The notes below the pieces were generated by a model, which saw nothing but the letters and a program-made list of their open reading frames with translations, was not told the origin of the DNA and ran no database searches. This document shows, one piece after another, positions 3,522 to 44,832 of a DNA stretch of 64,000 nt. Made by a program: the position numbers and the translations under genes. Numbering within the stretch: the stretch's first letter is position 1; each line of letters begins with the position of its first letter. This DNA is from Pyrinomonadaceae bacterium (lineage in GTDB: Bacteria; Acidobacteriota; Blastocatellia; Pyrinomonadales; Pyrinomonadaceae). The stretch covers positions 1,026 through 65,025 of the forward strand of contig JBEVJD010000356.1 of NCBI GenBank assembly GCA_040510435.1, given 5' to 3'.

Positions 3522-3555
3522 AGAGTTCGTCAAGAAGTGAACGACTCGCAAAGAG

Positions 3556-3592
3556 AAGGGCTCGCGGGAGGTTAATCCCGCGAGCCCTTTTT
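3556..3592 (+). terminator. Rho-independent terminator between convergent genes
   Basis: Stem aagggctcgcggga (3556-3569) / tcccgcgagccctt (3576-3589), followed by a T-run. Confidence 0.7.
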
Positions 3593-3620
3593 GTAAGTCC
3601 GCGCCGGCGGCGGGCGTGCC

Positions 3621-6695: not shown

Positions 6696-7038
6696 AGTAG
6701 AGGGTGCTCCTTCAAATTCGGGGTCTTAGAGACGATTCGTCCTGTTAACGATGACGTGTTGGGGGTTGGGCGACGCGCCGACGCGCGTGCGCCCCGACAG
6801 TCCGGCGCGCGTGAGTGGGAGAACACGCAACGCCGGGACTCGGATGGCAAATGGACTGAATTGAGAAGTGCGAACTGCCGGCCGCGGCTCCCTTCGAGCC
6901 CCCACAGCACCGCGCGGTCAGTTCGGGACGAGACGTGGCCTCCGGCGGGGGTTACTGCCTGAAGACGTCTTTAGAACGGGGGCTGAATCGAGTGAATAAT
7001 AAACGATGGCGCCGCGGCCCGCAACCACTTTGGCGGGA

Positions 7039-7740: not shown

Positions 7741-7761
7741 ACTCTCTCTCTCTAACTCTGT

Positions 7762-7841
7762 CAGAACGGCGAGCGGGTCAGTCTTACGCTTTGAAAATTA
7801 TTGGCGTAAGGCTGACCCGCTCGCGACCGCTCGCGTTACTG
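7762..7841. repeat. Hairpin of the GAGCGG-rich family
   Basis: cagaacggcgagcgggtcagtcttacgc (7762-7789) pairs with gcgtaaggctgacccgctcgcgaccgctcgcgttactg (7804-7841). Related copies lie at 34413 and 54137. Confidence 0.8.
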
Positions 7842-7846
7842 TCTCT

Positions 7847-22574: not shown

Positions 22575-22577
22575 GGC

Positions 22578-22730
22578 AGGGAGTCAGGAGTCAGAACTCA
22601 GGAGTCAGAAGTTAAGAGCCGGTAGTCTGGAGCTTCGGAGTCAAAGGTCGTTGAGTATCAAGTCAGTCGTAACGGACAAGACGACACCCGCTCTACATTC
22701 TGACTTCTGACTCCTGACTCCTGACTCCCT
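22578..22730. repeat. Heptamer-arm hairpin (GGAGTCA family)
   Basis: agggagtcaggagtcagaactcaggagtcagaagt (22578-22612) pairs with attctgacttctgactcctgactcctgactccct (22697-22730). Confidence 0.85.
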
Positions 22731-22732
22731 TC

Positions 22733-25080: not shown

Positions 25081-27270
25081 TTATCTCGCGTCGGGTGGGA
25101 CGGCCGTCTGCTTGCCGTCGAGGTAGCGGTCGAACCAGTAGAGCTGCCAGTTGAGGCTCTCGACTAAATGTTTGGGCTCGCCCGTGCGGGTGAGGTTGTG
25201 GTTCTCGCGGGGGAAGATGACGAACTCGGCGTTGGCGCCGAAGTGGCGGAGGGCGCGAAACCACTGCTCGGCCTGTTCGAGCGGGACGCGGTGGTCGTTC
25301 TCCGAGTGGAGAATGAGGATGGGCGTCCTGACGTTCTTCGCGTACTTGAGCGGCGAGCGCTCCCAGTAGAGGTCGAACTTCTCGAAGAGGTCGCCGCCGA
25401 AGTCGTCCTCGTGGCCGTAGGCGCCGTCGCGCGTGCCCTCGTCGCTGATGAAGTTGACGACGCTCCGCAGCGTCACGGCCGCCTTAAACATGTTCGTGTG
25501 GCCGACGATCCAGTTGGTGAGGTAGCCGCCGTAGCTCCCGCCCGTCACGCCCAGGCGCTCGCGGTCTATCCAGGGGTTGCGGCGCAGGACTTCCTCGACG
25601 CCGTTCATCACGTCCACGTAGTCCTTGCCGCCCCACTCGCCCTCGATGCCGCGCTCGAAACGCTGCCCGTAGCCCGTCGAGCCGCGCGGGTTCGTGTAGA
25701 AGACGGCCCACCCGCGCGCGGCGTAGACCTGAAACTCGTGGAACCAGTCCACGCCGTACATCGAGGCGGGGCCGCCGTGGATGCTCAAGACCAACGGGTA
25801 CTTGACGCCCTCACGCCAGCCGACGGGTCTGACGAGGAAGCCGTCAACGTCCCAGCCGTCGGCGCCCTTGTAGGTCATGCGCTCGACGGCCGAGAGTTGG
25901 AGCTGCGGCCAGAGGCGCGCGTTGAGGCTCGTCAACTTCTTCTCGTCGGAGCCGTCGAGGTCTGCCGTGTAGAGGTCGTCGAGGCGCCGGAAGTCGTTCG
26001 CGGCGTAGACCAGGCGCCGCGAGTCGTTGGAGATGTCCACGAAGCGGACGGCGCGCGCGCCCTTCGTCACCTGCTTGATCTTTCCGTCGCGCGCGTCCGC
26101 GCGGAACAGATGCGCCTCACCCTTCACGCCGGTCTCGAAGTAGAGCGCGCGCCCCGCTTCGGCCCAGGTCAGATTCGAGGGGATGAGGTCGAGTTCGGGC
26201 GCGACGTTGCGCGAGGGCGCGCCGCCCGCGGCCGGAGCCAAGAAGATTTTCGGGTGGTCGCGTTCGCGTATGCGGCCGAGGAAGGCGATGGTCTTTCCGT
26301 CGGGCGACCAGCGCGGGCTGTTGTCGGCCTCGTCGTGGTCGGAGATTTTCCGGATGGGGCCGCCGGCCGAGTCTATGACGAAGACATCCGTGTTGCGGCT
26401 CTCGTCGAAGGCTTTGCCCGTGCGGTCGGAGACGAAGGCGATAAGGTTGCCGTCGGGCGACCACTGCGGGTCGGAGTCGTTCCAGTCCTCGCCGAAGGTT
26501 ATCTGCGAGGCCGCGCCGCTCCGCACGTCAAAGACCCAGACGTGGCTGCGCTTGTCGTCGAACCAGCCCGTGTCGTTGAACTTGTAGGAGGTGTGCTTGT
26601 AGTGACGCACGTCGCTCGAAGGCGGTTTGATGTCGCTCGGGCCGGTGCGGCTCGTTAGCACCAACCGTGTTCCGTCCGGCGACCAGTCGAAGGTGCCGAC
26701 GCCGTTCCTGAGGTTCGTCAGGCGCCGCGCCTCGCCGCCTTCGAGCGAGAGCAGCCAGACCTGCGCGCGCGGCGTCGCCTCGGGCGTCGCGGTCTGGAGC
26801 GCCGAAGGTATCCCCGGCGTCGTCGCCGTGACCTGCGACTGCGGCGCGGCGCCCGAAGTCGCGGGCGCAGGCGTCGGCGTGGGCGTCGCACTTCCCTGCG
26901 GCGAAGACGGGGCGACATCGGGCGCGGGTCTTGAGGAGAGGAAGGCTATCGAGCGGCCGTCGGGCGACCAGCGCGGCGAGGTCGAGGACTGCGGGCTCGT
27001 CGTGAACTGGCGCGGCGTGCGGCTGCCGTCGGTCGCCGCCAACCAGATTTGAGAGAGCCGGCGGTTCTGCCTCTGATCCACGTTCGTCACGACGTAGGCC
27101 ACCCAGCGCCCGTCGGGCGAGAGCCGCGGGTCGGAGAGAAACTCGAACGAGTAGTAGTCCTCGGCCGTGACGCCGCGCGGCGCCTGCGCGACCTGCGCGG
27201 CGAGCGGCGCGGCCGAGACGAACGAGAGCAGCAGGGAGACGGCGAGCGCCCCCTTCAAAAACATTCTCAT
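25081..27270 (-). CDS. S9-family serine peptidase with TolB-like beta-propeller
   Basis: Signal peptide and repeated WSPDG propeller motifs. Catalytic GGSYGGYL, C-terminal D/H region (HSENDHRVP). Confidence 0.92.
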   Translation of the reverse strand: MRMFLKGALAVSLLLSFVSAAPLAAQVAQAPRGVTAEDYYSFEFLSDPRLSPDGRWVAYVVTNVDQRQNRRLSQIWLAATDGSRTPRQFTTSPQSSTSPRWSPDGRSIAFLSSRPAPDVAPSSPQGSATPTPTPAPATSGAAPQSQVTATTPGIPSALQTATPEATPRAQVWLLSLEGGEARRLTNLRNGVGTFDWSPDGTRLVLTSRTGPSDIKPPSSDVRHYKHTSYKFNDTGWFDDKRSHVWVFDVRSGAASQITFGEDWNDSDPQWSPDGNLIAFVSDRTGKAFDESRNTDVFVIDSAGGPIRKISDHDEADNSPRWSPDGKTIAFLGRIRERDHPKIFLAPAAGGAPSRNVAPELDLIPSNLTWAEAGRALYFETGVKGEAHLFRADARDGKIKQVTKGARAVRFVDISNDSRRLVYAANDFRRLDDLYTADLDGSDEKKLTSLNARLWPQLQLSAVERMTYKGADGWDVDGFLVRPVGWREGVKYPLVLSIHGGPASMYGVDWFHEFQVYAARGWAVFYTNPRGSTGYGQRFERGIEGEWGGKDYVDVMNGVEEVLRRNPWIDRERLGVTGGSYGGYLTNWIVGHTNMFKAAVTLRSVVNFISDEGTRDGAYGHEDDFGGDLFEKFDLYWERSPLKYAKNVRTPILILHSENDHRVPLEQAEQWFRALRHFGANAEFVIFPRENHNLTRTGEPKHLVESLNWQLYWFDRYLDGKQTAVPPDAR

Positions 27271-27294
27271 GCTTTCACCTTCACGCGGAGGGTC

Positions 27295-27873
27295 TTAAGG
27301 GTTCGTCTTCGGGATGGGCGTCTGTTTGACCGCCAGGCCGGCTTCAGGGTTGTCGGCGTCATACGCGACTTCGCGGTGCACCTCTTCTCTGAAGTCATCG
27401 AGCGCGAGCGTCATGCGCCGCCCGGACACCTTCGGCCCCTCCTCGGAGGTGACGGACGCCCAGCAAGACTCGTAGCGCTCGTTCTTCGCGTCGCGCACGC
27501 GCCACGCGCCGTCGAGCTTGAGCCAGACAACGTTGCACTCTGTCCCGGCGCCGCACTGCCGGTCGTCGGGCGGCACCTTCGACAGCCCGCACACGTCGAG
27601 CAGCAGGTACGTGAAGCCGCCCGCGCGCGACAGGAAGAGCACCGACACGTCCTCGATACGCATCGCGTCAACGTGCTTCGTCAGGTCGAGCGTGCGGGCG
27701 CGGCCGCCCTCCGTGACGACGACCCCGAGCCGCCCCTTCGCGCGCACGCTGACGCGCCCCTGCGCGCCCACCGGCACCCAGGACACGCAGGCCACGCACA
27801 GCGAAAGCAGTACGGCGCCGACGGATTGTTTGAGAAGTCGCAGCCCCGGAGGGGCGTGATTTTTATCGCGCAT
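27295..27873 (-). CDS. Hypothetical secreted protein; the start codon lies inside MITE copy 3
   Basis: The only canonical start is the ATG at 27873. The first 15 codons (MRDKNHAPPGLRLLK) are MITE sequence, followed by a signal-peptide-like h-region VGAVLLSLCVACVSWVPVGAQG. Confidence 0.55.
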   Translation of the reverse strand: MRDKNHAPPGLRLLKQSVGAVLLSLCVACVSWVPVGAQGRVSVRAKGRLGVVVTEGGRARTLDLTKHVDAMRIEDVSVLFLSRAGGFTYLLLDVCGLSKVPPDDRQCGAGTECNVVWLKLDGAWRVRDAKNERYESCWASVTSEEGPKVSGRRMTLALDDFREEVHREVAYDADNPEAGLAVKQTPIPKTNP

Positions 27874-27993
27874 GCTTTTTTTGTCGTCCGAGCCCCGTCA
27901 GGGGCGGCACGTCACATTTCGCCCCCGACGGGGCTCGGGAGAAAATTAAATACGCGGGGCTATAAACATCACGCTCCTCCGGGGCTTTACAGG
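27827..27993. mobile_element. MITE-like element, copy 3 (variant core)
   Basis: Terminal inverted repeats ccggaggggcgtgatttttatcgc (27846-27869) and gctataaacatcacgctcctccgg (27959-27982). Palindromic core ccgagccccgtcaggggcg...cgcccccgacggggctcgg. Confidence 0.75.
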
Positions 27994-28013
27994 TCGGCTT
28001 CTATTACTTCGTC

Positions 28014-30974
28014 TCACTTCGCCGCCTGCGCCGGGGCCGCGGTCAGTTTGTCGAGGTCGAAGACGTAGGCCGTCTGCGCGTCGCTCAGGACGAAGAGGCG
28101 GTTGCCGTCGAGGTTGAAGCGGACGAAGGCCGACGCCCCGGCGAGGCGGAGGTTGGCCTTGAGGTCGCCCGTTTCGAGGTCGTAGAGCGAAAGCTCGCCG
28201 GGGAAGTTCTCGACCGCGACGAGGTCGCGGCGCGGGTTGACGGCCGCCGTGCCGCCGAAGAAGCGGTGGCGCAACTCGCCCGTCTTGAGCGAGTAGATGA
28301 GGACTCGCCCCTCCGAGTCGTGGAGCACGAGCCGGTCGCCCTCCGACAAGCCCCGCCCCACGTCGAACGAGCCCTGCCCCGTCTCCAGCAGCATCGTGCC
28401 GACCGCCTTCTGCGAGAAGGCGTCCACGACCTCGACGAGGTAGTCGTCGGCCTTGTTGCCGAGCGCGTCGGCCTTCGCCTTCAACTCGGCCGACTCTTTG
28501 AGCTTCGCCTTGCCCACGTCGCTCCCCAGACGCCAGTAGAAGATGAGGCGGCCGCTGTAGGCGTCGAAGGAGAACTCGGGCGCCTCCTTCGTGAAGTCAC
28601 GCGACCAGATGACCTTGTCCTGCACGATGTCTTTCAACTCGAAGCGCACCTCGCGGCGCAGCCCGAGGTCGTCGTCGCCCTGCGCGGCGGCCAGCGCCGC
28701 CGCGGGGTCGTCCTTCGCCGGCTTCGCCTTGAGACTCGCGCGCAGGAGCACGAAGCGCCCGTACTGGCGCGCGCCCTTCTCGGGCAGCTCGCGGAAAGCG
28801 TTCGCGTCGCCGCTGGCGCCGCTCATCAGCACGAGGCTGTGCGGCGCGTCCCCGAGCTTGGGGAAGTCACCGACCGCGCCGCCGTCGTTGGCGGTGACGG
28901 CCCCGCGGAAGCCGCGGACGAAGACCTTGCGCTCGCCCGTCTTCAGAGACCACAGCCCGCCGCGCGTCTTCGACGAGAGCAGCAGCCAGCCGAAGTCGTC
29001 CGACACGTCCGAGGCGACGAGCCCGCGGACGGGGCTGACGGGGATTTCGACCGCGCCCACGTCCTTGAGGTCGAGCCTCTTGCTCGTCTCGTCGTAGCTC
29101 GTCTCGCGCAGCAGGATGTTGCCGCTGACCGACTCGTAGGCCATGACGCTGCCGAAGAAGGTCGCGTCGTCCTTGTCGAACCCGCCGATGAGCGCCCCGC
29201 GCTTCACGTCGAAGACGCCGAGCTTCGCGTTCGAGATCGGCCTGGCGATGACGTAGTCCGGGTTCTCCGTCCGCCCGATGAACCTCGCGCCGAACTCGAA
29301 CTTCTTGAGCCGCTTGCCCGAGGGGAAGGCGAAGAGACCCGAGTCGGCGGCCTTGCGCGAGGGCATGCCGACGACCGAGCCCGAGTCGAGGAAGGCGTAC
29401 GGGCGCGAGGCGACCTTCTTGAGGTCGCCGCCCACGTCCACCTGCTTGAGCGTCGTCAGGTCGACGGCCGCGGCCGTGTCCTCCGACTCGGCCACGGTCA
29501 TCGCGTCCCATTTGAAGCGGAAGCGGAAGCGCTGCGAGCGGCTGAACATCACGTAGCGGCCGTCGGGCGAGAACCCGATGCGGAAGAAGCCCACGTCGTC
29601 GTCGCCGTCGTCGTCGCCGCCCGCGCCGCGACGCGACGCCGAGCCGAGCCACGCGAGGTACTCCCAAACGTCGAGCCGGTAGAACTCCTTTTTCTCCCAG
29701 ACCTTCTTGCCCGTCTTCACGTCGAGCACGTGCGCGTTCGCAGAGGTGTCCACGCACGCGAGGTAGTTGCCGTCCGGCGAGAGGCCGTGCTCCCAGCAGT
29801 CGCGCCGGGTGACGATCTCGCGCACCTCGACGGGCGCGGCGTCGGCGACGCTCCACTTCTCGTAGCGCAAATTCTCGGTCGTGAAGACGACGAACCGACC
29901 GTCGGGCGTGAACATGGCGCGGTCGGCGTCCTCGACCGGAATCTGGAAGAGGACGCGCGGCTGCGGCTCGCGCGCGATGACGGTGACGGAGTAGTCGTCC
30001 TGCGCGAGCAGCAGCCGGCCGTCGCGGCTGAAGGCGAAGTGCGACACGTCGCTGCGCAGCTTCGGCTGTAACTCCTTCTTCCAGACGAGGCCGGGCAGCT
30101 CCTCCTTGCGGTTCGCCTCGCGGTACGAGACGACCTCGGCCTGCCACTTCAGGAACTCTTCGGTCGGGCGCGCGGCCGTGCGCTCGCGGCAGGGGGCCGG
30201 CATCTTCTCGGCGGCCTTCGCCATCTCGTAGAGCCGCTTCTGCTCGGGCGTCGTCTTGCCGAAGAGTTCCGAGAACCAGCCGCCCCGCGCCTTGCTCTCG
30301 GTCAGCCGCTCGAAGAACGACGAGAGCCCCTTCGGGTCGTAGCCGGCGGCGACCAGGGCGTAGACGCCGATCTGGTCGGCCTCCAACTGCTGCCCGTCCT
30401 CGTGGCCGCGGCCGCGCGAGTAGCGGCGCGTGCGCGCGCGCTCGATGAGAAGGTTGTACTTCTCGGTCACGTCCCTGCGGTCGCCGAGCGCGGTCACGTT
30501 CAGGATTTTGCGGAGCGCGTCGGACATGTCCTGCGCGCCGTGGCGGACGACGGCGTGCCCCAGCTCGTGCGCGATGACGCCGGCCAGTTCGTCCTCGTTG
30601 TTGACGAAGGCGACGAGCTTGCGCGAGACGGCGACGTAGCCGCCCGGCAGGTTGTAGGCGTTCACCTCGGGGATGTCCATCAGGTAGAAGCGGTACTTGA
30701 GGCCGGTCTGCGGCAGGTGCTTGATGATGCGCTCGCCGATACGGTTGAGGTGGGCCGTCAGCCTCTCGTCGCGGATGAAGCGAATCTCGCCGGCCATGTT
30801 CTGCACCCACAGCTCGCCGAAGATCATCTCCTGCTCCGGCGTGAACATGTTGTTCGACTTCGCGTTGGCGACGATTGCTGGCGGGGCGCACTCCTGCGCG
30901 AGGGCGGGCGCGGCGGCGCCGGCGCCGAGCAGGGCCGCGCAGAGCGAGAGGGCGGCTAAGGTCTTTCTGTACAT
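28014..30974 (-). CDS. Secreted M48-family Zn-metallopeptidase fused to a WD40/TolB-like propeller region
   Basis: Signal peptide from the ATG at 30974 (MYRKTLAALSLCAALLGAGAAAPALAQ). HELGH motif (IAHELGHAVVRHG). Repeated SPDG/SRDG propeller motifs. The 168-codon upstream extension in the ORF track is rejected. Confidence 0.85.
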   Translation of the reverse strand: MYRKTLAALSLCAALLGAGAAAPALAQECAPPAIVANAKSNNMFTPEQEMIFGELWVQNMAGEIRFIRDERLTAHLNRIGERIIKHLPQTGLKYRFYLMDIPEVNAYNLPGGYVAVSRKLVAFVNNEDELAGVIAHELGHAVVRHGAQDMSDALRKILNVTALGDRRDVTEKYNLLIERARTRRYSRGRGHEDGQQLEADQIGVYALVAAGYDPKGLSSFFERLTESKARGGWFSELFGKTTPEQKRLYEMAKAAEKMPAPCRERTAARPTEEFLKWQAEVVSYREANRKEELPGLVWKKELQPKLRSDVSHFAFSRDGRLLLAQDDYSVTVIAREPQPRVLFQIPVEDADRAMFTPDGRFVVFTTENLRYEKWSVADAAPVEVREIVTRRDCWEHGLSPDGNYLACVDTSANAHVLDVKTGKKVWEKKEFYRLDVWEYLAWLGSASRRGAGGDDDGDDDVGFFRIGFSPDGRYVMFSRSQRFRFRFKWDAMTVAESEDTAAAVDLTTLKQVDVGGDLKKVASRPYAFLDSGSVVGMPSRKAADSGLFAFPSGKRLKKFEFGARFIGRTENPDYVIARPISNAKLGVFDVKRGALIGGFDKDDATFFGSVMAYESVSGNILLRETSYDETSKRLDLKDVGAVEIPVSPVRGLVASDVSDDFGWLLLSSKTRGGLWSLKTGERKVFVRGFRGAVTANDGGAVGDFPKLGDAPHSLVLMSGASGDANAFRELPEKGARQYGRFVLLRASLKAKPAKDDPAAALAAAQGDDDLGLRREVRFELKDIVQDKVIWSRDFTKEAPEFSFDAYSGRLIFYWRLGSDVGKAKLKESAELKAKADALGNKADDYLVEVVDAFSQKAVGTMLLETGQGSFDVGRGLSEGDRLVLHDSEGRVLIYSLKTGELRHRFFGGTAAVNPRRDLVAVENFPGELSLYDLETGDLKANLRLAGASAFVRFNLDGNRLFVLSDAQTAYVFDLDKLTAAPAQAAK

Positions 30975-31174
30975 GCGGATTCTCCAAATGCAGGGTCGGA
31001 CGCGGAGGGCCTTCGCGCGTGAAGAGTCGGGGGGGCGTCGTGTCAGCCCCGGGTCGCGCGGGCGCGGAAACCTTCCGCGCCCCGGCCTTCCCTCGGGCGG
31101 CGGGCGCCGCCCGGCACATGCTACCACCACCCGCCGCGCCCCGCACGCCGCACCAAAGGCCGCGCGGGGGAGGC

Positions 31175-31639
31175 TCAAAGCTCTCGCGTCATGAAGACGC
31201 TGTAAGGGTCTTCGACGTAGTCCGCGAACGGCCCGCAGTAGGCGAAGCCGAAGCGAGCGTACAACTGCCGGGCGGGCTCGAAGGCTTCCGCCGACCCCGT
31301 CTCCAGACTCAGCCGCGCGTAGCCGCGGCCCACCGCCTCTTCGAGGATGTGGCGCAGAAGGTGTGAGGCGACGCCGCGCCTCAGGTGCGCCGCGGCCGTG
31401 CGCATGGACTTGATCTCGGCGTGGCGCGAGTTCAGTTCCTTGAGCGCCCCGCAGCCGAGCAGCTCGCCCCCCTCCCACACCGTCCAGAAAGTTATCCCCG
31501 GCCCGCGCAGCCCTTCGAGGTCGAGGGCGTGGACGCTCTCGGGCGGCGAGTGCAGGTGCATGTTCCGCAGGTGCTCCCCCAGCAGCTCGTGTATCTCGGG
31601 GCCGCTCAGGTCGTCGATCTTAACGTGCACGAGGTTCAC
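31175..31639 (-). CDS. GNAT-family N-acetyltransferase
   Basis: 154 aa. RRGVASHLL (acetyl-CoA binding Q/RxxGxG/A-like) and ARQLYARFGF. The start is 1 nt from the upstream stop. Confidence 0.85.
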   Translation of the reverse strand: MNLVHVKIDDLSGPEIHELLGEHLRNMHLHSPPESVHALDLEGLRGPGITFWTVWEGGELLGCGALKELNSRHAEIKSMRTAAAHLRRGVASHLLRHILEEAVGRGYARLSLETGSAEAFEPARQLYARFGFAYCGPFADYVEDPYSVFMTREL

Positions 31640-31640
31640 C

Positions 31641-34382
31641 TCAGCGTGTGCTTCTCCTGCCGCCGCCGCGCGCGCCGGCCGACGGCGCGGCGTCGTCCGG
31701 ACGCAGGTTCGCTTCGAAGAGTCGGAGGATGCGCTTGTACTCGTCGGCCCAACTGTCGGCGCGGTCGAAGGCGTGGTCTTCGACGGGGTAGGGGGCCAGC
31801 TCCCAGTTCTCTTTGCGCAGCTCGATGAGGCGCTCGGCGAGGCGGACTGTATCCTGAAAGTGGACGTTGGTGTCCACCATGCCGTGGCAGATGAGGAGCG
31901 GGCCTTTGAGCCCCGCGGCGAAGTAGATGGGCGAGCTGCGGCGGTACGCCTCGGGGTCGTCGTGCGGCTCGTTGAGGATGTTGGCGGTGTAGGGGTGGTT
32001 GTAGTGCGCCCAGTCGGTGACGGGGCGCAGCGCCGCGCCCGCGGCGAAGATGTCGGGCGTGGTGAACATCGCCATCAGCGCGATGAAGCCGCCGTAAGAG
32101 CCGCCGTAGAGCCCGACGCGCCGCGGGTCAACGCCGTGCTCGGCGACGAGGTAGCGGACGGCATCCACGTGGTCGTCCAAATCCTTGCCGCCCATGTGGC
32201 GGTAGATGCCCGTGCGCCAGTCGCGGCCGTAGCCGGCCGAGCCGCGGTAGTCGATGCTCAGCACGGTGTAGCCGCGCTCCATCAGGAGGTGGTGGAACAT
32301 GTGCTCGCGGTAGTAGGTTGACCACCACTTATGCACGTCTTGAAGATAGCCCGCGCCGTGGACGAAGAGGACGGCGGGCCCGCCCGGCCGCGCGCCCGCG
32401 GGCTTGTAGAGACGGCCGTGGACGGTCGCGCCGTCGCGCGCGCGGAAGTTGACGATGGGCGGGTCGATCCAGTTGTGAGTGAAGAACTCGGGCAGGGGCG
32501 AGGTCGTCACCTGTCTGATGTCCGGCGCGTGCCCGTTCGTGCCTTGCGGGGCCGCGGCCTGTGCGTTCGTCGAAGAGTTCGCCGCGGGCGCGTTCGGCGC
32601 CTGCGAGGTCTGGTCGGGCGCGGGCCGGTTCGGCTGTAGGTAAAGCTCGGGCGGGCGGTTCGTGTAGGAGCGCACGACGGCGAGCGTGCGGTCGTCGGGC
32701 GAAACGTCAACCTGGTTGTTGCCCGTCATCGTCGTCAGGCGCGTGCGCGCGCCGCCGTCGAACGACATCGTGTAGAGGTGTCGCTCGAAGAGGCTGCCCT
32801 CGCTCGAAGTGAAATATAACCTGGTCTTGTCGGTCGAAAGGCGCACGTCCGAGACTTCGAAGCGGCCGCTGGTCAACTGCGCGGGCTCGCCGCCTTCAAC
32901 GTTCACGGTGTAGAGGTGCGCCCAGCCGTCGCGCTCTGAGACGAAGTAGACGCGCCGGTTGTCCGGGAGCCAGCCCAGCGTGAACGCGCCGGGGCCGCCG
33001 ACCCACGCGTCGTCGTGCACGACGGCGAGCACGCGCGTCCGCCCCGTCGCCGGGTCGAGCGACATCACCCAGCGATCCTTGTTGTCCGAGGCGCGCGCCA
33101 TCAGCACCGCGCGCGAGCCGTCCTCGTTCCACTGCAACTGGAAGAGCTGCGCCTCGCGGTCGCGCGCCTGCTGCCCCTCGGTCTGCTGCGGCGGCGTGCG
33201 CGGCGGCTGGCCGGTCTGCTGTCCCGACTGTGCGCCGGTCTGCTGTTGAGATTGTGCGCCCGTCTGTTGTTGCGTCTGCGCGCCGGTCTGCTGCGCGCCT
33301 GACTCGCGCTGCGCGGACTCGGTCGCGTTCTGCTCGGTGCGCTGCTGCACGCGCGGCGCGACCTGCGCGCGCAGACCCGTCTCGACCCACTTGACCTCGC
33401 CCGTCGCCACGGACGCGAGCCCGAGCCGCGTGCGCCCCTGCGTGTCGCCGACCTTCGTGCGCGACTGTATGTCCTCGGTGTAGCCGCCGTCGCCGATGTA
33501 GTTTGGGACGATGGTGTTCTTGCCCGCCGCGGGGTCAGCCACCGTCAGGACGACGTAAGCGCCGTCGGGCGAGAGCTGGAGGTTCGTCACCGTCTGACCC
33601 GCGGTGAGCGAGAACGGCTTGCGCCTGTCCTTGTCACGCTCGCGGCGGCGGCGCTCCTGCTCCTCGCGCTGTTCGGCGCGCTCGCGCACCACGTCGAGGA
33701 GCCGCCGCTCCTCCCTGCGCAAAAACTCCTGGCTCTCGCTCGCGCGCCCGCCCGCGCCGACCGTCGCCTGCAAACCGACACCCGCGCCCACCGCCGCGCC
33801 ACCCGCGGTGGGCGGGGTGGGCACGCGTATGTCCGTGAGCTGTTCGAGCGAGCCGCCGTCGAGCGACATCACGTAGAGGTTGCTCGCGCGCGTGAAGTAG
33901 ACCGCGCGCTGGTCGCGCGTGAAGCGCGCGTTCGACTCCGCCTCGACCGTGCGCGTCAACTGCCGCCGCTCGGACTTCTCGTGGTCGTAGAGGAAGACAT
34001 CGCCCTCGTCCGTGAAGACCGTGAGGCGCCTGTCCTTCGACAACTCGCCCGCGGCGGGCGGGCTCTTGCGCACCTCCTCTTCCGACAGCTTACGCAGCCC
34101 CGTGCCGTCGGCGTTCACCGTGTAGAGGTCTGTCTCCTTCAGGCGCGGCTCGCCCGCGCGCTTCCAACGGAAGAAGACGCGCCGGCTGTCCTGCGACCAG
34201 TAGACGCCCCCCGGCGTGTAGCCGACGAGGTCGGGCCCGCGCATGATACTGTCCACGGTCAGCGCGAACGCCTTGGCCGGCGCCACTTGCGCCTGCGGCT
34301 GCTGCCGCGCGAAGGTCTGCTGGAAGAGCAGCGCCGCGACGAACGCGCACGACGCCGCGCGGCGGAAAGTTTGTCCTCGCAT
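31641..34382 (-). CDS. S9-family peptidase (DPP-IV/prolyl oligopeptidase type) with a Gln-rich insertion
   Basis: Signal peptide and propeller N-terminus. Catalytic GGSYGGFI, later CHGMVDTNV and EDHAF. Confidence 0.9.
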   Translation of the reverse strand: MRGQTFRRAASCAFVAALLFQQTFARQQPQAQVAPAKAFALTVDSIMRGPDLVGYTPGGVYWSQDSRRVFFRWKRAGEPRLKETDLYTVNADGTGLRKLSEEEVRKSPPAAGELSKDRRLTVFTDEGDVFLYDHEKSERRQLTRTVEAESNARFTRDQRAVYFTRASNLYVMSLDGGSLEQLTDIRVPTPPTAGGAAVGAGVGLQATVGAGGRASESQEFLRREERRLLDVVRERAEQREEQERRRRERDKDRRKPFSLTAGQTVTNLQLSPDGAYVVLTVADPAAGKNTIVPNYIGDGGYTEDIQSRTKVGDTQGRTRLGLASVATGEVKWVETGLRAQVAPRVQQRTEQNATESAQRESGAQQTGAQTQQQTGAQSQQQTGAQSGQQTGQPPRTPPQQTEGQQARDREAQLFQLQWNEDGSRAVLMARASDNKDRWVMSLDPATGRTRVLAVVHDDAWVGGPGAFTLGWLPDNRRVYFVSERDGWAHLYTVNVEGGEPAQLTSGRFEVSDVRLSTDKTRLYFTSSEGSLFERHLYTMSFDGGARTRLTTMTGNNQVDVSPDDRTLAVVRSYTNRPPELYLQPNRPAPDQTSQAPNAPAANSSTNAQAAAPQGTNGHAPDIRQVTTSPLPEFFTHNWIDPPIVNFRARDGATVHGRLYKPAGARPGGPAVLFVHGAGYLQDVHKWWSTYYREHMFHHLLMERGYTVLSIDYRGSAGYGRDWRTGIYRHMGGKDLDDHVDAVRYLVAEHGVDPRRVGLYGGSYGGFIALMAMFTTPDIFAAGAALRPVTDWAHYNHPYTANILNEPHDDPEAYRRSSPIYFAAGLKGPLLICHGMVDTNVHFQDTVRLAERLIELRKENWELAPYPVEDHAFDRADSWADEYKRILRLFEANLRPDDAAPSAGARGGGRRSTR
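33205..33300 (-). repeat. In-frame 24-nt tandem repeat (about 4 units) encoding QQQTGAQS-type low complexity
   Basis: ccggtctgctg/cccgtctgttg recurs at 33211, 33235, 33259 and 33283. Translates to GAQQTGAQTQQQTGAQSQQQTGAQSGQQTGQ. Confidence 0.8.
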
Positions 34383-38079: not shown

Positions 38080-38128
38080 AAAAAAAATTCGCGCGCGACG
38101 AAGAGTTGTTTTGCTCTTCGTCGCGCGC
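38080..38128 (-). terminator. Canonical rho-independent terminator ending the pil-like operon
   Basis: Minus strand: gcgcgcgacgaagag-caaaacaa-ctcttcgtcgcgcgc, followed by gaa + T8. Confidence 0.85.
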
Positions 38129-38188
38129 GAACGTGTTGTGTGTGACGTGTGACTCTCTCTCAATCGCGCCGCGCGCGGCGGCGCAGCC

Positions 38189-38854
38189 TCAACGGTAGAA
38201 GGGCGTGAAGACCCAGCGGTCGTGTCGTTCGATGCCGTAGTAGGTGATGATGGAGTCGCGACGGCTGCGGCTGGTCACGCCGATGAAAGGGCCGCTGCTT
38301 GAGATTGAGCTGTCCTCGCCGCCGTCGCTATCGCCGATGCTGGAGCCGATGCCGGTGACGAGGCCGGCGAGCTGTGGGAGCTGACCCGCGAGCGGCAGCA
38401 GCGACGGGTCAGTCGTCGCGGTCGGCGTCCGCCCTTCGGCGTACTCGCTGAGGTCGCGGATGAAGCGCACCAGCGCCTCATCCCGCAGCTTGATGGTGCG
38501 CCACTCGCCGCTCTCCGAGAGCGGGTCGCGCGCGGCGCTGGCGCGCAGCACCTTGACCTTCTTCGTGCGGCCGGCGGGCGCCACGCCTTCGAGCAGCTCG
38601 TCCATCGAGGTCGGCGGCTGCTTCGCGGGGTGGAGGCTGATGTAGAGGCGGATGGCGTCAGCGACCTCCTCGCCGCGGGCGATGGCTTCGAGCTCCGTCT
38701 CGCGGCGCGCCTGCTGGCGCATGCTCGGCGCGGCGGTCATCATCGCGATCATGAGCAGCGTCATCAGCGCGAGCAGCGCGATGAGCGCGTAGCCGCGCTC
38801 GCCGGGGGCCCGCCCGCCCGAGCCGCGTTCGCCTGTTGCGTGTCGTGCTTTCAT
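38189..38854 (-). CDS. Pseudopilin-like protein (GspG/GspK-like N-terminus lacking Glu+5)
   Basis: RGYALIALLALMTLLMIAMM is a prepilin-like hydrophobic N-terminus with Ala at +5. It is followed by a RRETELEAIARGEEVADAIRLY helix typical of T2SS/T4P pseudopilins. Confidence 0.65.
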   Translation of the reverse strand: MKARHATGERGSGGRAPGERGYALIALLALMTLLMIAMMTAAPSMRQQARRETELEAIARGEEVADAIRLYISLHPAKQPPTSMDELLEGVAPAGRTKKVKVLRASAARDPLSESGEWRTIKLRDEALVRFIRDLSEYAEGRTPTATTDPSLLPLAGQLPQLAGLVTGIGSSIGDSDGGEDSSISSSGPFIGVTSRSRRDSIITYYGIERHDRWVFTPFYR

Positions 38855-38879
38855 CGAGTCTGTCCGGGTGCCGCGGGGC

Positions 38880-39815
38880 TCAGGGCTCTTCGTCGCCGTC
38901 TTCGGCGGGGGGCGGCGGGGGCTGGATCGAGCCGGGCGCGCGGCCGGGCACGCCGGGCCCGCCGCGCGTGTCCACGTAGGGCATCGTGTGCTTGATGTTC
39001 AAGTCCTTATCGACGACCTCGACGCCGCGCTCGGAGATGTCCGTGACGCGGAAGCGGCCCTCGACGAGGTCGCCCTGGCGGACGCTGTAGAGCTCGCCCC
39101 TCGCGTCCTTGAGGACGGCGGTGCTGGTGCTCGGGCGCGGGCGCTTGAGGAAGCCGACGAAGGTGTAGGTCGGCGCGGGCGGCTGCATGACGTTGAGCGA
39201 CGCCTCGTTCGAGAAGAGCTGGCCGTCGGGCGTCTGCACCTTGACGGGGCGCGCGCCGGGGGTGGAGATGAGCGAGGCCGGGACGGTGGCCGTGAGCTGC
39301 TGGGCGCTCTTGTACTGCGTCGGCAACTCCTGACCGCCGACGTAGACGCGGTCGCTGGGGCCGAACTTGTCGCCGCTGAGCTGAAGCGTGAAGCCGGCCG
39401 TGCGCGCGAAGACGCTCTGCGGCATGAGGCCGGCGAGCATCTTGTCCGGCGGCGGCGTGGGCACCGGCGTGGGCACGGTGGGGATGGGGGTCGGCGGCGG
39501 CGGGGGCTTGACGTAGAAGGCGAAGATGTTGCGGCCTGCGTCGCCGACGGTGGCGGGCTCGGGGCAGCAGACGACGACGGCGAGGTCGGCGGCGGAGACT
39601 TCGGCGTCGGCCTCGGGGGCCGTGCCGGGCGCCTGCTGCTGCGCCGTCGAGGGGCGCGCGCCGCCGCGCTTGTTGTTCGTGTTGGCGGTCGCCGGGGTCG
39701 GCCTCGAAGGGCCGGAGAGCATGTTGTAGGCGAAGATGAGTGCGAGGAGCGGCAGCGCGATGGCCGCGATCAGCTTGTTGCGCTCAGCCGGTGTCTTTCC
39801 TTCGAAGAGTGCCAT
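38880..39815 (-). CDS. PilP-like protein with Pro-rich linker and an inserted IPT/TIG-like domain
   Basis: N-terminal TM and RNIFAF motif. FTLQLSGDKFGPSDRVYVGGQEL...ATVPASL is IPT-like. The C-terminal AVLKDARGELYSVRQGDLVEGRFRVTDISERGVEVVD is PilP/GspC-HR-like. Confidence 0.6.
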   Translation of the reverse strand: MALFEGKTPAERNKLIAAIALPLLALIFAYNMLSGPSRPTPATANTNNKRGGARPSTAQQQAPGTAPEADAEVSAADLAVVVCCPEPATVGDAGRNIFAFYVKPPPPPTPIPTVPTPVPTPPPDKMLAGLMPQSVFARTAGFTLQLSGDKFGPSDRVYVGGQELPTQYKSAQQLTATVPASLISTPGARPVKVQTPDGQLFSNEASLNVMQPPAPTYTFVGFLKRPRPSTSTAVLKDARGELYSVRQGDLVEGRFRVTDISERGVEVVDKDLNIKHTMPYVDTRGGPGVPGRAPGSIQPPPPPAEDGDEEP

Positions 39816-39858
39816 GACTTTTAATTCGCTCGTCGCGCGTGAGGGCCGCGGCCCGGGG

Positions 39859-40695
39859 CTACTGCGCCGCCTCGGCGGAGGCGGCCGCCCGCCGGAAGTA
39901 TGTGGCCATGTCGAGGCGCAGGCTGACGAGCGCGCCGCGCGTGGGCGCCTGCGGCTGCGTCTGGGGCACGCCGGGCACCTCGCCGTTGGTGACGACGGGG
40001 GGCGCTATTTGTTCCGCCGCGTTCGTGTCAGTGACGCCTTCGAGCTCGACCGTGTTGATGACGACGAACTGCCGGCGGTCGCCCTCGATGTCGCGGATGA
40101 AGCGGCGGAGGTTCGGGTAGTTGCCCTCGACCGTGAGCGTGACGCCGATGCCGGGGAAGATGCTCTGCACGATGCGCTGCGCGCCCTGCTCGCCAGACCC
40201 CTGGCGGCGCGCCCGCTGCGCGTTCTCCGCGCCGGGCACGACCTCCTGAAGCTGCGTGAAGTTGATGCCGCCGCTGATGCGCAGCCCGTTCTTAGTGATG
40301 AGCCGGTTCAGTTCTTCGATGACGAGCTTCGTGCCGCTCGACGCGCTGCCGAGGTTGCCGGTCTCGAAGCGTTCGAGGCTCGTCAGGATTTCCGAGACGC
40401 GCTGCTCGGTGTCCTTGCTCGTGCCGAGGTTGGTCTGCTGGCTCGCGAGCACCTGCCTCAGGCTCGCGTCCTCTGCGTCGAGCGACTGCGTGCGCGACCT
40501 CTGCGGGACGAGCAGGAAGAGGTAGGCGAGCACGGCCGCCATCAGGAGCAGCGCCGCGAAGGCGAGCGCGCCCAGCTCGGGCAGGCCGAAGGGGCCGCGG
40601 CGGCGCGAGGCGCGGAGCGTGTCGAGGCGCGCGCGCAGGGCCGCGCCTCGCGCGCCGGCCCCGCCCGGCCCCGTGACTGCGGTGTCGTTCTTCAA
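39859..40695 (-). CDS. PilO-like pilus/T2SS assembly protein
   Basis: Single TM, coiled coil, and C-terminal VTLTVEGNYPNLRRFIRDIE...FVVINTVEL, typical of PilO/GspM. TTG start 2 nt after the pilN-like stop. Confidence 0.72.
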   Translation of the reverse strand: MKNDTAVTGPGGAGARGAALRARLDTLRASRRRGPFGLPELGALAFAALLLMAAVLAYLFLLVPQRSRTQSLDAEDASLRQVLASQQTNLGTSKDTEQRVSEILTSLERFETGNLGSASSGTKLVIEELNRLITKNGLRISGGINFTQLQEVVPGAENAQRARRQGSGEQGAQRIVQSIFPGIGVTLTVEGNYPNLRRFIRDIEGDRRQFVVINTVELEGVTDTNAAEQIAPPVVTNGEVPGVPQTQPQAPTRGALVSLRLDMATYFRRAAASAEAAQ

Positions 40696-40697
40696 AG

Positions 40698-41357
40698 CTA
40701 CTCGCGCCCCCCCGCGTCCTTAGAGATAGATATTGCGGCGTCGCGCACGGAGGCGGATATGTCGCCGGCCGGCGCGCTGCGCCCCCCGCGCCGCGCGTGC
40801 TGCACGTAGGAGACGCGCAGCAGCCACTCGAAGCCCGACTCGCCGCGCCCGGACTTCTGGTTCTCGGTGACGGCAACGACGTTGAAGGTGCCGGAGCGGT
40901 TCATCGCGTCCATCATGCCGGTCACGTCGGTCGGCGTGCGTCCGACGACCGTGAGGTCGAGGTCGGTGCGCGTCTGGTCGCCGACCTGCGCGACCTCGCG
41001 GACGTTGATGCGCGAGACCTTCACGTCGCTCGGCAGGAAGCCTTCGAGGTCGGAGAAGAGCTGCGACCACGAGAAGCCTTTGCGGCTGATGAGCGCGCGC
41101 GCGGCCTCAAGCGTCTGGTACTGCTCGCGCGGGATGCTCTGCCTGACGGCGTCGGCCTGCCGTTCGTACTCCTTCTGCTGCTCGCGCATCACCACCACCT
41201 GCTTCTCGGAGAGGTCGGCCTCTGCGCGCACCTCGTTGTAGCGGGCGAGGATAAAGACGAGCGCGAGGAGCGAGGCGGCCGAGACCGCGGCGGCCACCGT
41301 CCAGGGCAGGGCGCGATTCCGAAACGGGTCGTTGGCTAAGTTGAGTCTGGAAATCAC
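40698..41357 (-). CDS. PilN-like pilus assembly protein
   Basis: LNLANDPFRNR + TM + coiled coil + ferredoxin-like C-terminus (VKVSRINV...LDLTVVG). GTG start. Confidence 0.72.
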   Translation of the reverse strand: MISRLNLANDPFRNRALPWTVAAAVSAASLLALVFILARYNEVRAEADLSEKQVVVMREQQKEYERQADAVRQSIPREQYQTLEAARALISRKGFSWSQLFSDLEGFLPSDVKVSRINVREVAQVGDQTRTDLDLTVVGRTPTDVTGMMDAMNRSGTFNVVAVTENQKSGRGESGFEWLLRVSYVQHARRGGRSAPAGDISASVRDAAISISKDAGGRE

Positions 41358-41643: not shown

Positions 41644-42600
41644 TTACGGCCGCCCGGTGGCCTGGCTGACGACGCGCGAGTTGACGACGCGGCCCGCGGC
41701 GTCGAGCGTGAGTTCGATGACGGCGCCGGTGGTGTCGAGGACGCGGCGGACGGTCTGCCCCGAAGGGTTGGTCGTGTCGGCGCCCTGCTGCGTGAGCGAG
41801 CCCACGCTGCCGACCGTGCGCTGGCCGACGACCGTCCCGGCCGTGTCGAGCGTGCGTTCGACGATGTTGCCCGAGCGGTCGACGACCCGCTGGACGGTCT
41901 GGCCGAGGTTGTTGACCGTCGAGTTCAAAAGCCCGCCGGGCTGCGTGACGTTGTTGAGGGTCTGGCCGACGGTGCCGACCGTGCGATCCACGACGCCGCC
42001 CGGTTGCAGAGCCGTGTTGGCGACGCCGCCGACCGTGCCGACCGTGTTGTCCACGCTCTGGAGGAGCCGTTCGAGTATCTGCGGGTTGCGGTCGATGGTC
42101 GTCAGCGTGCGGTCGATGATGGCGGCGACGTTGTCGAGCCTGACCTTCAGGAGCACCTCGGCGCGCACGCCCTTGATGGTGAGGTCAACGTCGTCAATCC
42201 CCACGTCGGCACCCGCGGTCAGTTGCAGGAGGTTGGCGAGGCGCGCGTCCAGAGCGACGTGCGCGCGCAGGTTCTTCACCTTCAGAGTTATCTCTTCGAC
42301 CGAGAGGTTCGGCACGTCTAAGAGCACGTCCGGGTCGCCCGAGGCCGCGGACTGCCGCCGGCGCTCGCTCGCCTCCTGCTGGCGGCGTATGTCCTCCTGC
42401 GAGAGCGGGCGGACGGGCGTGACGGCGGGCGGCGAAGGGCGCGGCGTCGGCTGCTGCTGCGCGGTGCGCGTGCCGGTCGCGGTGGCGTTGATGGAGGCGT
42501 TCGGGTCGCCCTGGTTAGTGGTCGTGGTCGTCTGCGCGTAAGCGCCGACGCCGTGGAGCGCGAGGATCAGCAAGGCTCCTGCTTGAAAGAGCTTCTTCAT
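41644..42600 (-). CDS. Secreted repeat protein (hypothetical), gene C of a 3-gene operon
   Basis: Signal peptide MKKLFQAGALLILALHGVGAYAQ with GGAGG upstream. C-terminal repeats of the type VDRSGNIVERTLDTAGTVVGQR / LDTTGAVIELTLDAAGRVVNSR. Confidence 0.7.
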   Translation of the reverse strand: MKKLFQAGALLILALHGVGAYAQTTTTTNQGDPNASINATATGTRTAQQQPTPRPSPPAVTPVRPLSQEDIRRQQEASERRRQSAASGDPDVLLDVPNLSVEEITLKVKNLRAHVALDARLANLLQLTAGADVGIDDVDLTIKGVRAEVLLKVRLDNVAAIIDRTLTTIDRNPQILERLLQSVDNTVGTVGGVANTALQPGGVVDRTVGTVGQTLNNVTQPGGLLNSTVNNLGQTVQRVVDRSGNIVERTLDTAGTVVGQRTVGSVGSLTQQGADTTNPSGQTVRRVLDTTGAVIELTLDAAGRVVNSRVVSQATGRP

Positions 42601-42678
42601 CGTTCCCTCCGGAAAATGTTTGACGAAAACGTCTCGGTACGGGCGGGGGTTTTCTTGTTCGCAAAACTTTGAAGCGGG

Positions 42679-43116
42679 TTAAGGCGGGGGCCGCGTCGGC
42701 GTGCCGCGGCGCGCATCGAGCAGTCGCAGCACGGGCGCGAGGCTCGCGCGGAAGCGGACGTGCCCGCGCACGTTGCGCAAGAGCACCTCGATGTCGCTCG
42801 CGCGCAGGGTAACACCTACGTCGAGCCGCAGTCCGCGCGCGCCGTCCGTCTCGACCGCGGTCTCGGCGTGGAAGTCCTTCTCGCTGATGCGGCGCACGTC
42901 TATGTTCAGCTCGAAGTCTTCGTCGGCGGTCGCGCCTGCTTCCTGTGTCGGCAGCGGAGGCGCGGCCGCGGGCGCCTCAACAGTCTGCGTCTGCGCCAAC
43001 GCGCCCGTAGACGCTGCGGCGAGGACGAAGCACACGATAGCGGATTTAAGAAGAGACGCGGCCGCTGATTTAAGAAGACGGCCGGCCGCGGCCGAAAGAA
43101 GATTCGTGCGTTTCAA
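42679..43116 (-). CDS. Secreted hypothetical protein, gene B
   Basis: TTG start overlapping the gene A stop (TTGA), with GGAGG upstream. Signal-like AIVCFVLAAASTGALAQ. Confidence 0.6.
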   Translation of the reverse strand: MKRTNLLSAAAGRLLKSAAASLLKSAIVCFVLAAASTGALAQTQTVEAPAAAPPLPTQEAGATADEDFELNIDVRRISEKDFHAETAVETDGARGLRLDVGVTLRASDIEVLLRNVRGHVRFRASLAPVLRLLDARRGTPTRPPP

Positions 43117-43727
43117 TTTCCCCTCCCCCTGCGCGCGAGCCCGCGCCTGTGCCGCGTCGCGGCGGCGTTGTCGGCGGGGGCTTGAGCCGGCGGAGTGTTT
43201 GACTGTGCCGGCGGAGCGTCCGCGCCGGGCGGCTGCGTCGGCGGGGGCGCGGGCGGCGGTATGTCGTCGCTCGGCGGGACTTCGCCCAGCGCCTCCGCGA
43301 CGATGCGGTCGATGTCGGCGAAGACGCTCCTGATGTGGAGCGTGATGCCTATGTTGCGGTAGGTCTCGCCGGGGCGAACCTCCTGCGGCAGGTTCTCGCG
43401 CTCCGACTCCCAGGCGGTCTCGCGCCTCGGCCGCCCCGTGAACTCGACGCGCGGGTTCGGCACCTTGTCGAACCGCAGGGACTCGGCCGTCACGCGCGCC
43501 GTGATGGAAACGTCCGCGCTCGCGTCCGCCTCGCTCTCAAGGGGCGTTCGCGGTTCGCGCGGCGCGGGGCTTGTGCCCTGCCGCGGCGGCGCAGGGCGCG
43601 ACTGACCTTGCGCGCTGGTCTGACGCGGCGCGGTAATCTGCGCCGACACGTCAGACGAAAGTCCCGACGCCGTCATGAAGACGGCGGCGAGCACGAAGTT
43701 GACGAAGGCCGTGAGCCTCACTCTCAT
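43113..43727 (-). CDS. Secreted hypothetical protein with Pro-rich C-terminus, gene A
   Basis: ATG at 43727 with GAGGTGAGG upstream. Signal peptide [22 protein letters not shown]. The 179-codon upstream extension in the ORF track is rejected. Confidence 0.6.
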
Positions 43728-43857: not shown

Positions 43858-44832
43858 TCAGCGGGGCTCGCCGGGGCCGGGGCCGGCGGGGCGCAGGTCG
43901 GGCGGGGAGACGCAGTAGGCGACGACGCGGTTGCGGCCGAGGTTCTTGGCGCGGTAGAGGGCCGTGTCGGCCAGCTCGACCAGCTCGATGGGGTCGCGCG
44001 CGTCTTCGGGGTAGGCGGCGACGCCGAGGCTGATGGTGATGCGGAGTGTCTCGTTCGTCTCGTTGGGCGCGCCGCGGCGCGTGGCCGGGAAGAGGTGGCG
44101 CTCGATGGCTGTGCGGACGCGCTCGGCGGCGACGAGCCCCTGCGCGCAGTCGGCGTTGAGGAGGAAGGCCGCGAACTCCTCGCCGCCGAAGCGCGCCGCC
44201 ACGTCGCCCGCGCGCAGGGCGCCCGTGATGAGCGTGCCAACCTCTTCGAGCGTCTGGCTCCCAACGAGGTGCCCGTGCTTGTCGTTGACCAACTTGAAGT
44301 GGTCGAGGTCCATCATCAGGACGCAGAAGGGTCGCACCTCGGTCTCGGCGCGCGCGGCCTCGCGCCGCAGTTCGGAGAAGAAGGACTTGCTGGTGAGCAG
44401 TCCCGTCAGCTCGTCGTGCGCGAGCAGGCGGTGAATCTGGCGCTGGTACTCGCGGTCTATGTCGTCGAGGAGGTCGAAGCGCAGGAGCTGTTCGCCGACC
44501 GTGAGCTTGTCGCCGTCCTGGAGGTAGGCGTCCGAGACGGGCGCGCCGTTGAGGAGCGTGCCGTTGGTCGAGTTGAGGTCGGTGATGCGATAGCGCGCGT
44601 CGCCCGTGGCTGCGTCGCGCTCGACCGTGATGCGCGCGTGCATGCGCGAGGCGCGCGCGTCGTTGACGCGCACGTCGGCTTCGAGCGCGCGCCCCAGCGT
44701 CACCTCGTCGCGTTCGAGCGGGATGGGCGCGGCCAGCAGTTCGCCGCGCAGGAAGACGAGCGCAGGGTGGCGCTCGCGCGGCGCGGAGAGCCGCGGCATC
44801 TGAACGGTCGTGTCGAAGGGTTCGCTTCCCAT
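43858..44832 (-). CDS. FHA-domain diguanylate cyclase (FHA + GGDEF)
   Basis: FHA: [25 protein letters not shown]...[14 protein letters not shown]: [17 protein letters not shown]...[12 protein letters not shown]. Confidence 0.9.

Follow-up and report, generated by a model that had tools for sequence, protein, structure and literature searches.

A conserved four-gene operon of Pyrinomonadaceae as the likely platform and tip module of a second type IV filament machine

A four-gene operon encoding PilN-, PilO- and PilP-like proteins and a non-canonical pseudopilin lies in a 64,000-nucleotide stretch of DNA (the window) from a Pyrinomonadaceae bacterium (GenBank assembly GCA_040510435.1, contig JBEVJD010000356.1, here C356). 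The source assembly comprises 7.56 Mb in 622 contigs and is 94.5% complete, and the G+C content of the window is 63-72%. Close homologs of the operon's proteins come from Pyrinomonadaceae metagenome-assembled genomes of the Acidobacteriota class Blastocatellia. The four open reading frames, referred to as N, O, P and K, are all intact and run head to tail in the order N-O-P-K (Table 1). They are separated by 2 nt (N-O), 43 nt (O-P) and 25 nt (P-K), and the N stop and O start overlap in many relatives. The tightly joined minus-strand operon described in a first-pass annotation of the sequence is found as placed there, and so is the canonical terminator at its end, a strong hairpin followed by seven T residues.

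N is built like PilN: a conserved cytoplasmic N-terminal peptide (LNLAxxPFRNR) and a single transmembrane segment are followed by a coiled coil and, in the periplasm, by a domain of the PilN type. As a single sequence, N reaches the Pfam PilN model at E=0.011 (16.1 bits against a cut-off of 22.8). Alignments of 35 ortholog sequences were used for profile tests of all four proteins, and the PilN model matches 27 of the 35 N orthologs (best 4.9e-5). The N profile aligns with the canonical PilN of the same genome at 84% probability (hhalign, E=7.9e-6) and has no match among PDB sequences. Residues N6, P11, F12, N14 and R15 are invariant in the ortholog alignment, and the resulting motif, NLxxxPFxNR, is longer than and distinct from the MIKVNLL of canonical PilN. 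In other classes, gene N stands directly 3' of a PilM-like gene. O matches Pfam T2SSM_b at 2.2e-4 (21.5 bits against a cut-off of 21.7) and NCBIfam GspM at 1.2e-4, with no match to PF04350 PilO. Its ortholog profile matches Myxococcus PilO (PDB 3jc8) at 2.8e-4 and, in hhalign, the PilO of its own genome at E=2.6e-4. Neither N nor O scores above the curated PilN and PilO cut-offs, which the canonical copies on contig C123 pass (PilN 29.1, PilO 86.3).

The AlphaFold2 (AF2) model of P begins with a transmembrane helix (residues 9-34) and continues through a disordered, proline-rich linker (~39-120), an IPT/TIG domain (125-210) and a beta domain (218-280) to an acidic, proline-bearing tail. Confidence, as predicted local distance difference test (pLDDT) score, exceeds 90 across residues 125-280. 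Compared with TIG/IPT structures using Foldseek, the IPT domain gives target TM-scores of 0.76-0.81, including matches to the TIG domains of EBF1 and CAMTA1. Single-sequence searches with hidden Markov models (HMMs) find TIG (4e-4), the immunoglobulin (Ig)-like repeat CoaZ_rpt_PGGG (7e-20), GspC_delta (0.004) and pilP_fam (0.05). Among the 35 orthologs, GspC_delta matches 11 (best 0.0011) and pilP_fam 10, all of these being weak matches. Among PDB sequences, the P profile finds only the IPT domain, and the fold search is dominated by Ig/TIG folds, with the end domain (218-280), confident in the AF2 model, not matched separately. A P profile compared by hhalign with the protein in the canonical PilP position on C123 shows no similarity, and that protein itself has no Pfam match. 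An exact-sequence look-up of P in a gene-position index returned no entry. A short ortholog from outside the class (171 aa), encoded between O and a secretin, is without the IPT domain and matches Pfam T2SSC at 0.0017. These matches weakly suggest a C-terminal domain resembling PilP and the homology region (HR) of GspC. Comparison with this one clear out-of-class ortholog further suggests that the IPT insertion is a class-specific gain. The earlier description of P, a PilP/GspC-HR-like C-terminus combined with a proline-rich linker and an IPT domain, is thus borne out by AF2 and Foldseek for the IPT part, and is tentatively supported for the end domain by weak HMM matches and gene position.

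In K, a leader of 21 aa ends at a predicted prepilin-peptidase site (G21/Y22), and the N-terminus includes the sequence ERGYALI, with Ala at position +5. G21 is invariant and Y22 near-invariant among the orthologs, and none has Glu at +5, in line with the GspK-like feature first noticed in the single sequence. GspK/PilX-type subunits lack Glu5. A single-sequence HMM search matches the GspK N-terminus only (E=0.62), and neither Pfam N_methyl nor TIGR02532 matches K. In a profile search of PDB sequences, K aligns with helix alpha-1 of gonococcal and meningococcal PilE/PilA, position 22 falling on residue 1, and the AF2 model contains a helix of 55 residues (20-74; mean pLDDT 79.6). Close K homologs bear the JGI label 'pseudopilin PulG', and the K HMM weakly matches both partner pseudopilins on contig C321, described below. 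A scan of genome contigs with a four-sequence K alignment found Blastocatellia only. The distant K-family clusters that bear names belong to Terriglobales or Blastocatellia, the rest being nameless metagenome proteins, and no Geobacter OxpG was among them. The K profile finds full-length relatives outside the class Blastocatellia. K is probably the tip subunit of a filament, by analogy with the GspK/PilX type. Overall, the families first proposed for N, O, P (including TIG) and K were recovered, although single-sequence support is weak and below cut-off. The assignments are strengthened by ortholog-wide and structural tests.

The operon is widely conserved. P was found in 39 of 41 relatives overall, including 22 of the 24 genomes of the genus and all 16 genomes from six other families of the class, where it is full length and 28-38% identical. 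N-O-P-K is single-copy, and its order is kept in every examined relative holding all four genes, a conservation across the class that answers the check proposed with the first-pass annotation. The genes are collinear in nine of nine class-level loci. Of a further 80 Pyrinomonadaceae/Blastocatellia loci, 66 have all four genes intact and ordered; in the remaining 14, most of them at contig ends, one or more genes are missing. Among these 80 is a locus (L107) of the cultured Pyrinomonas methylaliphatogenes K22. Synteny 3' of the operon is also conserved, with a spoU-type methyltransferase and TypA/BipA.

Neither pilM nor pilQ was found in the window, and the only related gene on its contig encodes a PilT-family ATPase. 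The lack of pilM, pilQ and pilB/C beside the operon had been remarked on before, and a genome-wide search places them on other contigs. A canonical pilM-N-O-(P)-Q operon lies on C123 (PilM 240 bits, PilO 86 bits, secretin 145 bits) and pilB-pilT-pilC on C260. The same search finds PilM only on C123 (with a weak match on C4), platform genes on C161 and C260, and secretins on C123, C321, C1 and C343. HMMs of N, O, P and K match only their copies in the window, leaving the canonical PilN/O/P unmatched. Because the canonical pilMNOPQ and pilB-pilT-pilC genes are present in the same genome, N-O-P-K is distinct from the ordinary type IVa scaffold; it is not the type IVa pilus scaffold of this cell. 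It is accordingly very unlikely that N-O-P is a spare or dispersed set serving the canonical type IVa pilus with its PilM, PilQ, PilB/C and the nearby PilT. N does share the N-terminal 'NL' of canonical PilN, and PilT is 14 kb away, but the motif of N is extended and invariant, PilT shows no synteny with the operon across relatives, the canonical operon has its own N, O and P, and relatives join N-O-P-K to a different F/E/secretin/PilM-like set.

This set was recognised in two genomes from two other Blastocatellia families (G032 and G028), in which K is directly followed by six partner genes. These encode a T2SSF platform protein (F), a T2SSE ATPase with an MshEN-type N-domain (E), a TPR/STN secretin (D), two prepilin-type proteins (G1 and G2) and a PilM-like protein of ~320 aa (X). 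The window's own genome holds orthologs in the order F-E-D-G1-G2-X: C161 ends with F and the first part of E, C321 carries the remainder of E together with D, G1 and G2, and X is on C405. These genes form one locus, since the contig ends C161→C321→C405 overlap exactly by 133 nt. N-O-P-K is therefore not an orphan, because its partner set F-E-D-G1-G2-X is present at a second locus and is contiguous with N-O-P-K in other families. Although the operon had been called orphan, the accompanying idea of a dispersed system was essentially right. N-O-P-K likely provides the inner-membrane and periplasmic assembly platform, along with what is probably the tip subunit, for a second machine of the type IV filament kind that is distinct from the ordinary type IVa pilus.

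The partner proteins resemble type II secretion system (T2SS) components while falling below the NCBIfam equivalog cut-offs: GspF 329-339 against 424, GspE 540-543 against 630, GspD 122-140 against 351 and GspG 20-34 against 89. F scores best to GspF and D to GspD, and E ties between the two families (548 bits PilB, 543 GspE). The N-terminus of E was considered as a receptor for cyclic di-GMP; it gives a general MshEN/T2SSE_N match, but an RLGxxLLxxG-type motif was not seen in it by eye. For X, the matches to PilM models (E=2.5e-5 to 6.6e-12) lie far under cut-off. G1 and G2 carry the canonical sites G/WTLIE and G/FTLLE, with Glu5 present, and GspG-like motifs; with K they are the only three pilin-like genes of the system. 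Three A24 prepilin peptidase genes occur in the genome. D, the system's own secretin, has an ordinary signal peptide and combines N-terminal TPR repeats and STN/Secretin_N domains with a cohesin-like domain at the C-terminus. The secretins of two further loci (L020 and L113) share the build of TPR, STN/Secretin_N and cohesin-like domains, and the out-of-class copy has a lipobox (VVAGC). Amuc_1100 and Amuc_1098, from a pilus-like cluster of Akkermansia, were also considered and dropped, as their matches were weaker than those to Gsp/Pil.

Layouts differ between lineages. G032 and G028 have a single run, N-O-P-K-F-E-D-G-G-M, with the PilM-like gene last. In five other genomes of the class, N-O-P-K and the partner locus are also separate, lying ~1.2 Mb apart in Chloracidobacterium-sized genomes. 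Three loci outside the class, from other acidobacterial classes or families (L113, L116 and L117), hold one operon, F-E-X-N-O-P-secretin-G-K. In every layout seen, X (~320 aa) and N (~200-220 aa) are encoded separately and the cluster lacks a retraction ATPase. The best explanation for these arrangements is that the single operon F-E-X-N-O-P-secretin-G-K was ancestral, was rearranged in Blastocatellia and was split into two loci in the source lineage. At the genus level, the F-E-D-G1-G2-X locus is followed by genes for a redoxin, an extracytoplasmic function (ECF) sigma factor and a zf-HC2 anti-sigma factor.

While gene content, order, conservation, domain architecture and the partner genes with their locations were established directly, a mechanism can be proposed from homologous machines. 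In the inner membrane, N would pair with O, and its cytoplasmic NLxxxPFxNR peptide would be held by the cognate PilM-like X. X may in turn couple these components to the ATPase (GspE-like) and the platform protein (GspF-like). P, anchored in the inner membrane, is expected to span the periplasm via its proline-rich linker, with the IPT domain as a spacer; docking of its C-terminal HR/PilP-like domain onto the TPR-secretin could then align motor with pore. Prepilin peptidase would cut K at G21/Y22, and the Glu5-less K might start and cap a short fibre of Glu5-bearing, GspG-like G1 and G2. ATP-driven growth of this fibre would then expel folded proteins via the secretin.

Secretion is modestly favoured over a surface pilus as the output of the machine because the one relative that has been studied is a secretion system, the GspG-like subunits number only three and the genes are not linked to a retraction ATPase. 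The same machine might instead make a true surface pilus used for adhesion, DNA uptake or electron transfer, an outcome that is possible though rather unlikely. It shares its M/N/O/P architecture with the type IVa pilus and not with GspL/M/C, the ATPase scores equally to PilB and GspE, and the cohesin-like C-terminal domain of the secretin could hold surface partners. Such a pilus would, however, have to be built from three pilin-like genes, all GspG-like, with no retraction ATPase in any cluster layout seen, by a machine whose F and D score best to Gsp models and whose one studied counterpart of the same gene order is needed for protein secretion.

That counterpart is the Pul system of Geobacteraceae, an atypical T2SS. 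The genome paper of Pelobacter carbinolicus lists pulF-E-M-N-O-P-Q-pulG-oxpG, in which Q is a secretin lipoprotein (Pcar_1685-1678 plus oxpG; PMC3543383, Table S4), and gives Pul-type systems 'two or three pseudopilins each' (PMC3543383). The Geobacter Pul system is required for secretion of the multicopper oxidase OmpB (Mehta 2006, as cited in PMC3543383). Compared by gene list, Pul has the same parts and gene order as the three loci from outside Blastocatellia. It has two or three pseudopilins, and the acidobacterial system likewise has G1, G2 and K; its secretin PulQ is a lipoprotein, and the out-of-class acidobacterial secretin also has a lipobox. Unlike Pul, the source genome splits N-O-P-K from F-E-D-G1-G2-M' (M' being the PilM-like gene), its P contains an inserted IPT domain, and its secretin combines an ordinary signal peptide with TPR repeats and a cohesin-like tail. 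By gene content and order, the acidobacterial machine can be classed with the Geobacter Pul type.

Other known systems share some of these parts. In the type IVa PilM-N-O-P/PilQ assemblies of Pseudomonas, Myxococcus and Thermus, as here, the actin-like PilM is a protein of its own, PilN and PilO are bitopic, and a connector leads to the secretin. These assemblies also share the NL-type N-terminal peptide on PilN and, with the out-of-class relatives, the order M-N-O-P-secretin. In contrast, N and X fall under the PilN and PilM cut-offs, the partners are GspF- and GspD-like, and there is neither a PilT nor a PilA-type major pilin but three GspG-like subunits. In GspL of canonical T2SSs, a cytoplasmic actin-like domain is fused to a periplasmic ferredoxin-like domain, and there are five pseudopilins (G/H/I/J/K). 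Compared with these systems (Gsp/Eps/Xcp), O resembles GspM and the N-terminus of K that of GspK, the end domain of P weakly resembles the GspC HR, and F and D are closest to GspF and GspD. Unlike them, the acidobacterial machine has no fused GspL, X and N being separate genes, and no GspH/I/J. P is without the PDZ or coiled-coil region of GspC, its IPT domain preceding the HR-like domain, and K is much smaller than canonical GspK.

Several observations weigh against a second filament machine of this kind. All matches to named families fall under curated cut-offs. The PilP/HR call for the end domain of P draws on weak HMM matches and gene position, and in a Foldseek comparison of K with solved structures only the pilin helix was matched (E=2.4), its small head finding no relative. 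The likeness to Pul is one of gene list and order. Three further elements, namely the contact between PilM and N, the placement of K at the tip and secretion as the output, are carried over from homologous systems. In addition, the ratio of nonsynonymous to synonymous substitution rates (dN/dS) against close relatives is 0.23-0.70, which is purifying but loose, with dS probably compressed (G+C at third codon positions, GC3, ~0.9). The weak HMM scores and this relatively high ratio could also indicate decaying, functionless paralogs. This reading is scarcely credible given that the frames are intact, the gene order fixed and the motifs conserved in more than 80 genomes across the class, that relatives occur across the phylum and that the AF2 domains are confident. 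A complete canonical pilMNOPQ operon elsewhere, combined with clear degeneracy of the present genes, had been named as grounds for rejection; such an operon exists, yet N-O-P-K, single-copy, intact and collinear, are not degenerate paralogs. They are fast-evolving but constrained genes.

Acidobacteria rank with the most abundant bacteria of soils and depend on secreted hydrolases for their living. To our knowledge, their envelope machines are known only under generic "T2SS" labels, and no paper in the literature searched goes beyond the listing of 'T2SS genes' for this system in Acidobacteria. Geobacter already provides an example of the machine type, and acidobacterial versions carry generic annotations; the particular features of the present case are that the platform/tip operon is detached across the class and that the connector has an IPT insertion. 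An apparently orphan scaffold operon becomes part of a complete, phylum-wide second machine, which corrects the annotation of most of these genes as "hypothetical" or "PulG". The split layout explains why system finders based on co-location would miss or misclassify the machine. The IPT-bearing connector and the Glu5-less subunit, predicted to be co-transcribed with the platform, represent variations on periplasm spanning and fibre start, and P. methylaliphatogenes K22, with the same operon, offers a culturable test organism. More speculatively, and with considerable doubt, the Pul-type machines of Acidobacteria and Geobacter might constitute a phylum-spanning class of their own among type IV filament systems, neither T2SS nor type IVa. 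The Blastocatellia version would then be derived, its platform/tip operon detached beside an FHA-GGDEF gene (for control of assembly by cyclic di-GMP, c-di-GMP) and its connector equipped with an IPT domain for cargo recognition or periplasmic span.

Table 1. Coordinates of the operon, its neighbours and other features discussed (window positions unless a contig or locus is named)
Feature	Location	Strand	Description
N	40698-41357	-	219 aa, GTG start, PilN-like bitopic membrane protein
O	39859-40695	-	278 aa, TTG start, PilO/GspM-like bitopic membrane protein
P	38880-39815	-	311 aa, GspC/PilP-like connector
K	38189-38854	-	221 aa, non-canonical pseudopilin, prepilin-type, without Glu5
Intrinsic terminator	38087-38132	-	19-bp stem (12 G-C pairs), 8-nt loop, then TTTTTTT; closes the operon 3' of K
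Three signal-peptide proteins	41644-43727	-	between FHA-GGDEF and N; no family match
FHA-GGDEF diguanylate cyclase	43858-44832	-	Pfam GGDEF 1.4e-38, FHA 1.3e-16; upstream neighbour, candidate regulator
PilT-family ATPase	22733-23959	-	408 aa, ~14 kb from the operon
PilT and zinc-ribbon/receiver pair	21780-23959	-	PilT followed by zinc-ribbon + degenerate receiver-domain gene
Secreted-type hydrolases	25081-34382	-	two S9 prolyl-oligopeptidase/DPP-IV proteins (729, 913 aa), M48-peptidase/beta-propeller (1154 aa)
Secretin D of the system	L026 1598-4162		TPR-secretin with cohesin-like domain
Genes after the partner locus	L029 3593-4797 in G016 (own genome: C405)		redoxin, ECF sigma and zf-HC2 anti-sigma genes following F-E-D-G1-G2-X in the genus
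TPR-secretin paralog	contig C1, L027 3039-5837	+	932 aa, cohesin-like C-terminus
Prepilin peptidase group	contig C343, ~217-8066		A24 prepilin peptidase, weak secretin match, T2SSE-family ATPase match

An FHA-GGDEF gene of the same orientation, often directly abutting N, precedes the operon in at least 45 of the 80 related loci, and it is present in Chloracidobacterium-family loci too. Its product is 68-97% identical across relatives, far better conserved than N, O, P or K. This synteny, and synteny only, suggests possible c-di-GMP control of the machine. In the window, three genes for signal-peptide proteins stand between FHA-GGDEF and N, and it had been proposed that the operon could be an alignment subcomplex recruited to another envelope machine, such as this adjacent group. 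The group is closely spaced and on the same strand, but its proteins have no family matches, a gap of 286 nt separates it from N, and it occurs in about a quarter of related loci, only in this Pyrinomonadaceae sub-lineage, while elsewhere FHA-GGDEF abuts N. Recruitment of this kind is therefore highly improbable, and the three genes seem to have been inserted where GGDEF and N were once joined.

The PilT gene and the adjacent zinc-ribbon/receiver gene, noted earlier as a nearby pair, are present ~14 kb from the operon but have no syntenic link to N-O-P-K across relatives; a second PilT lies between pilB and pilC on C260. The stretch downstream of the operon also encodes secreted-type hydrolases of the S9 and M48 types, and it is conceivable that these are cargo of a secretion machine. 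Elsewhere in the genome, contig C1 carries a TPR-secretin paralog, 34-38% identical to the system's secretin orthologs, with no other pilus or secretion gene within the 9 kb examined. On contig C343, an A24 prepilin peptidase occurs together with a weak secretin match and a T2SSE-family ATPase match, a gene group that is possibly a third system, perhaps Tad-like.

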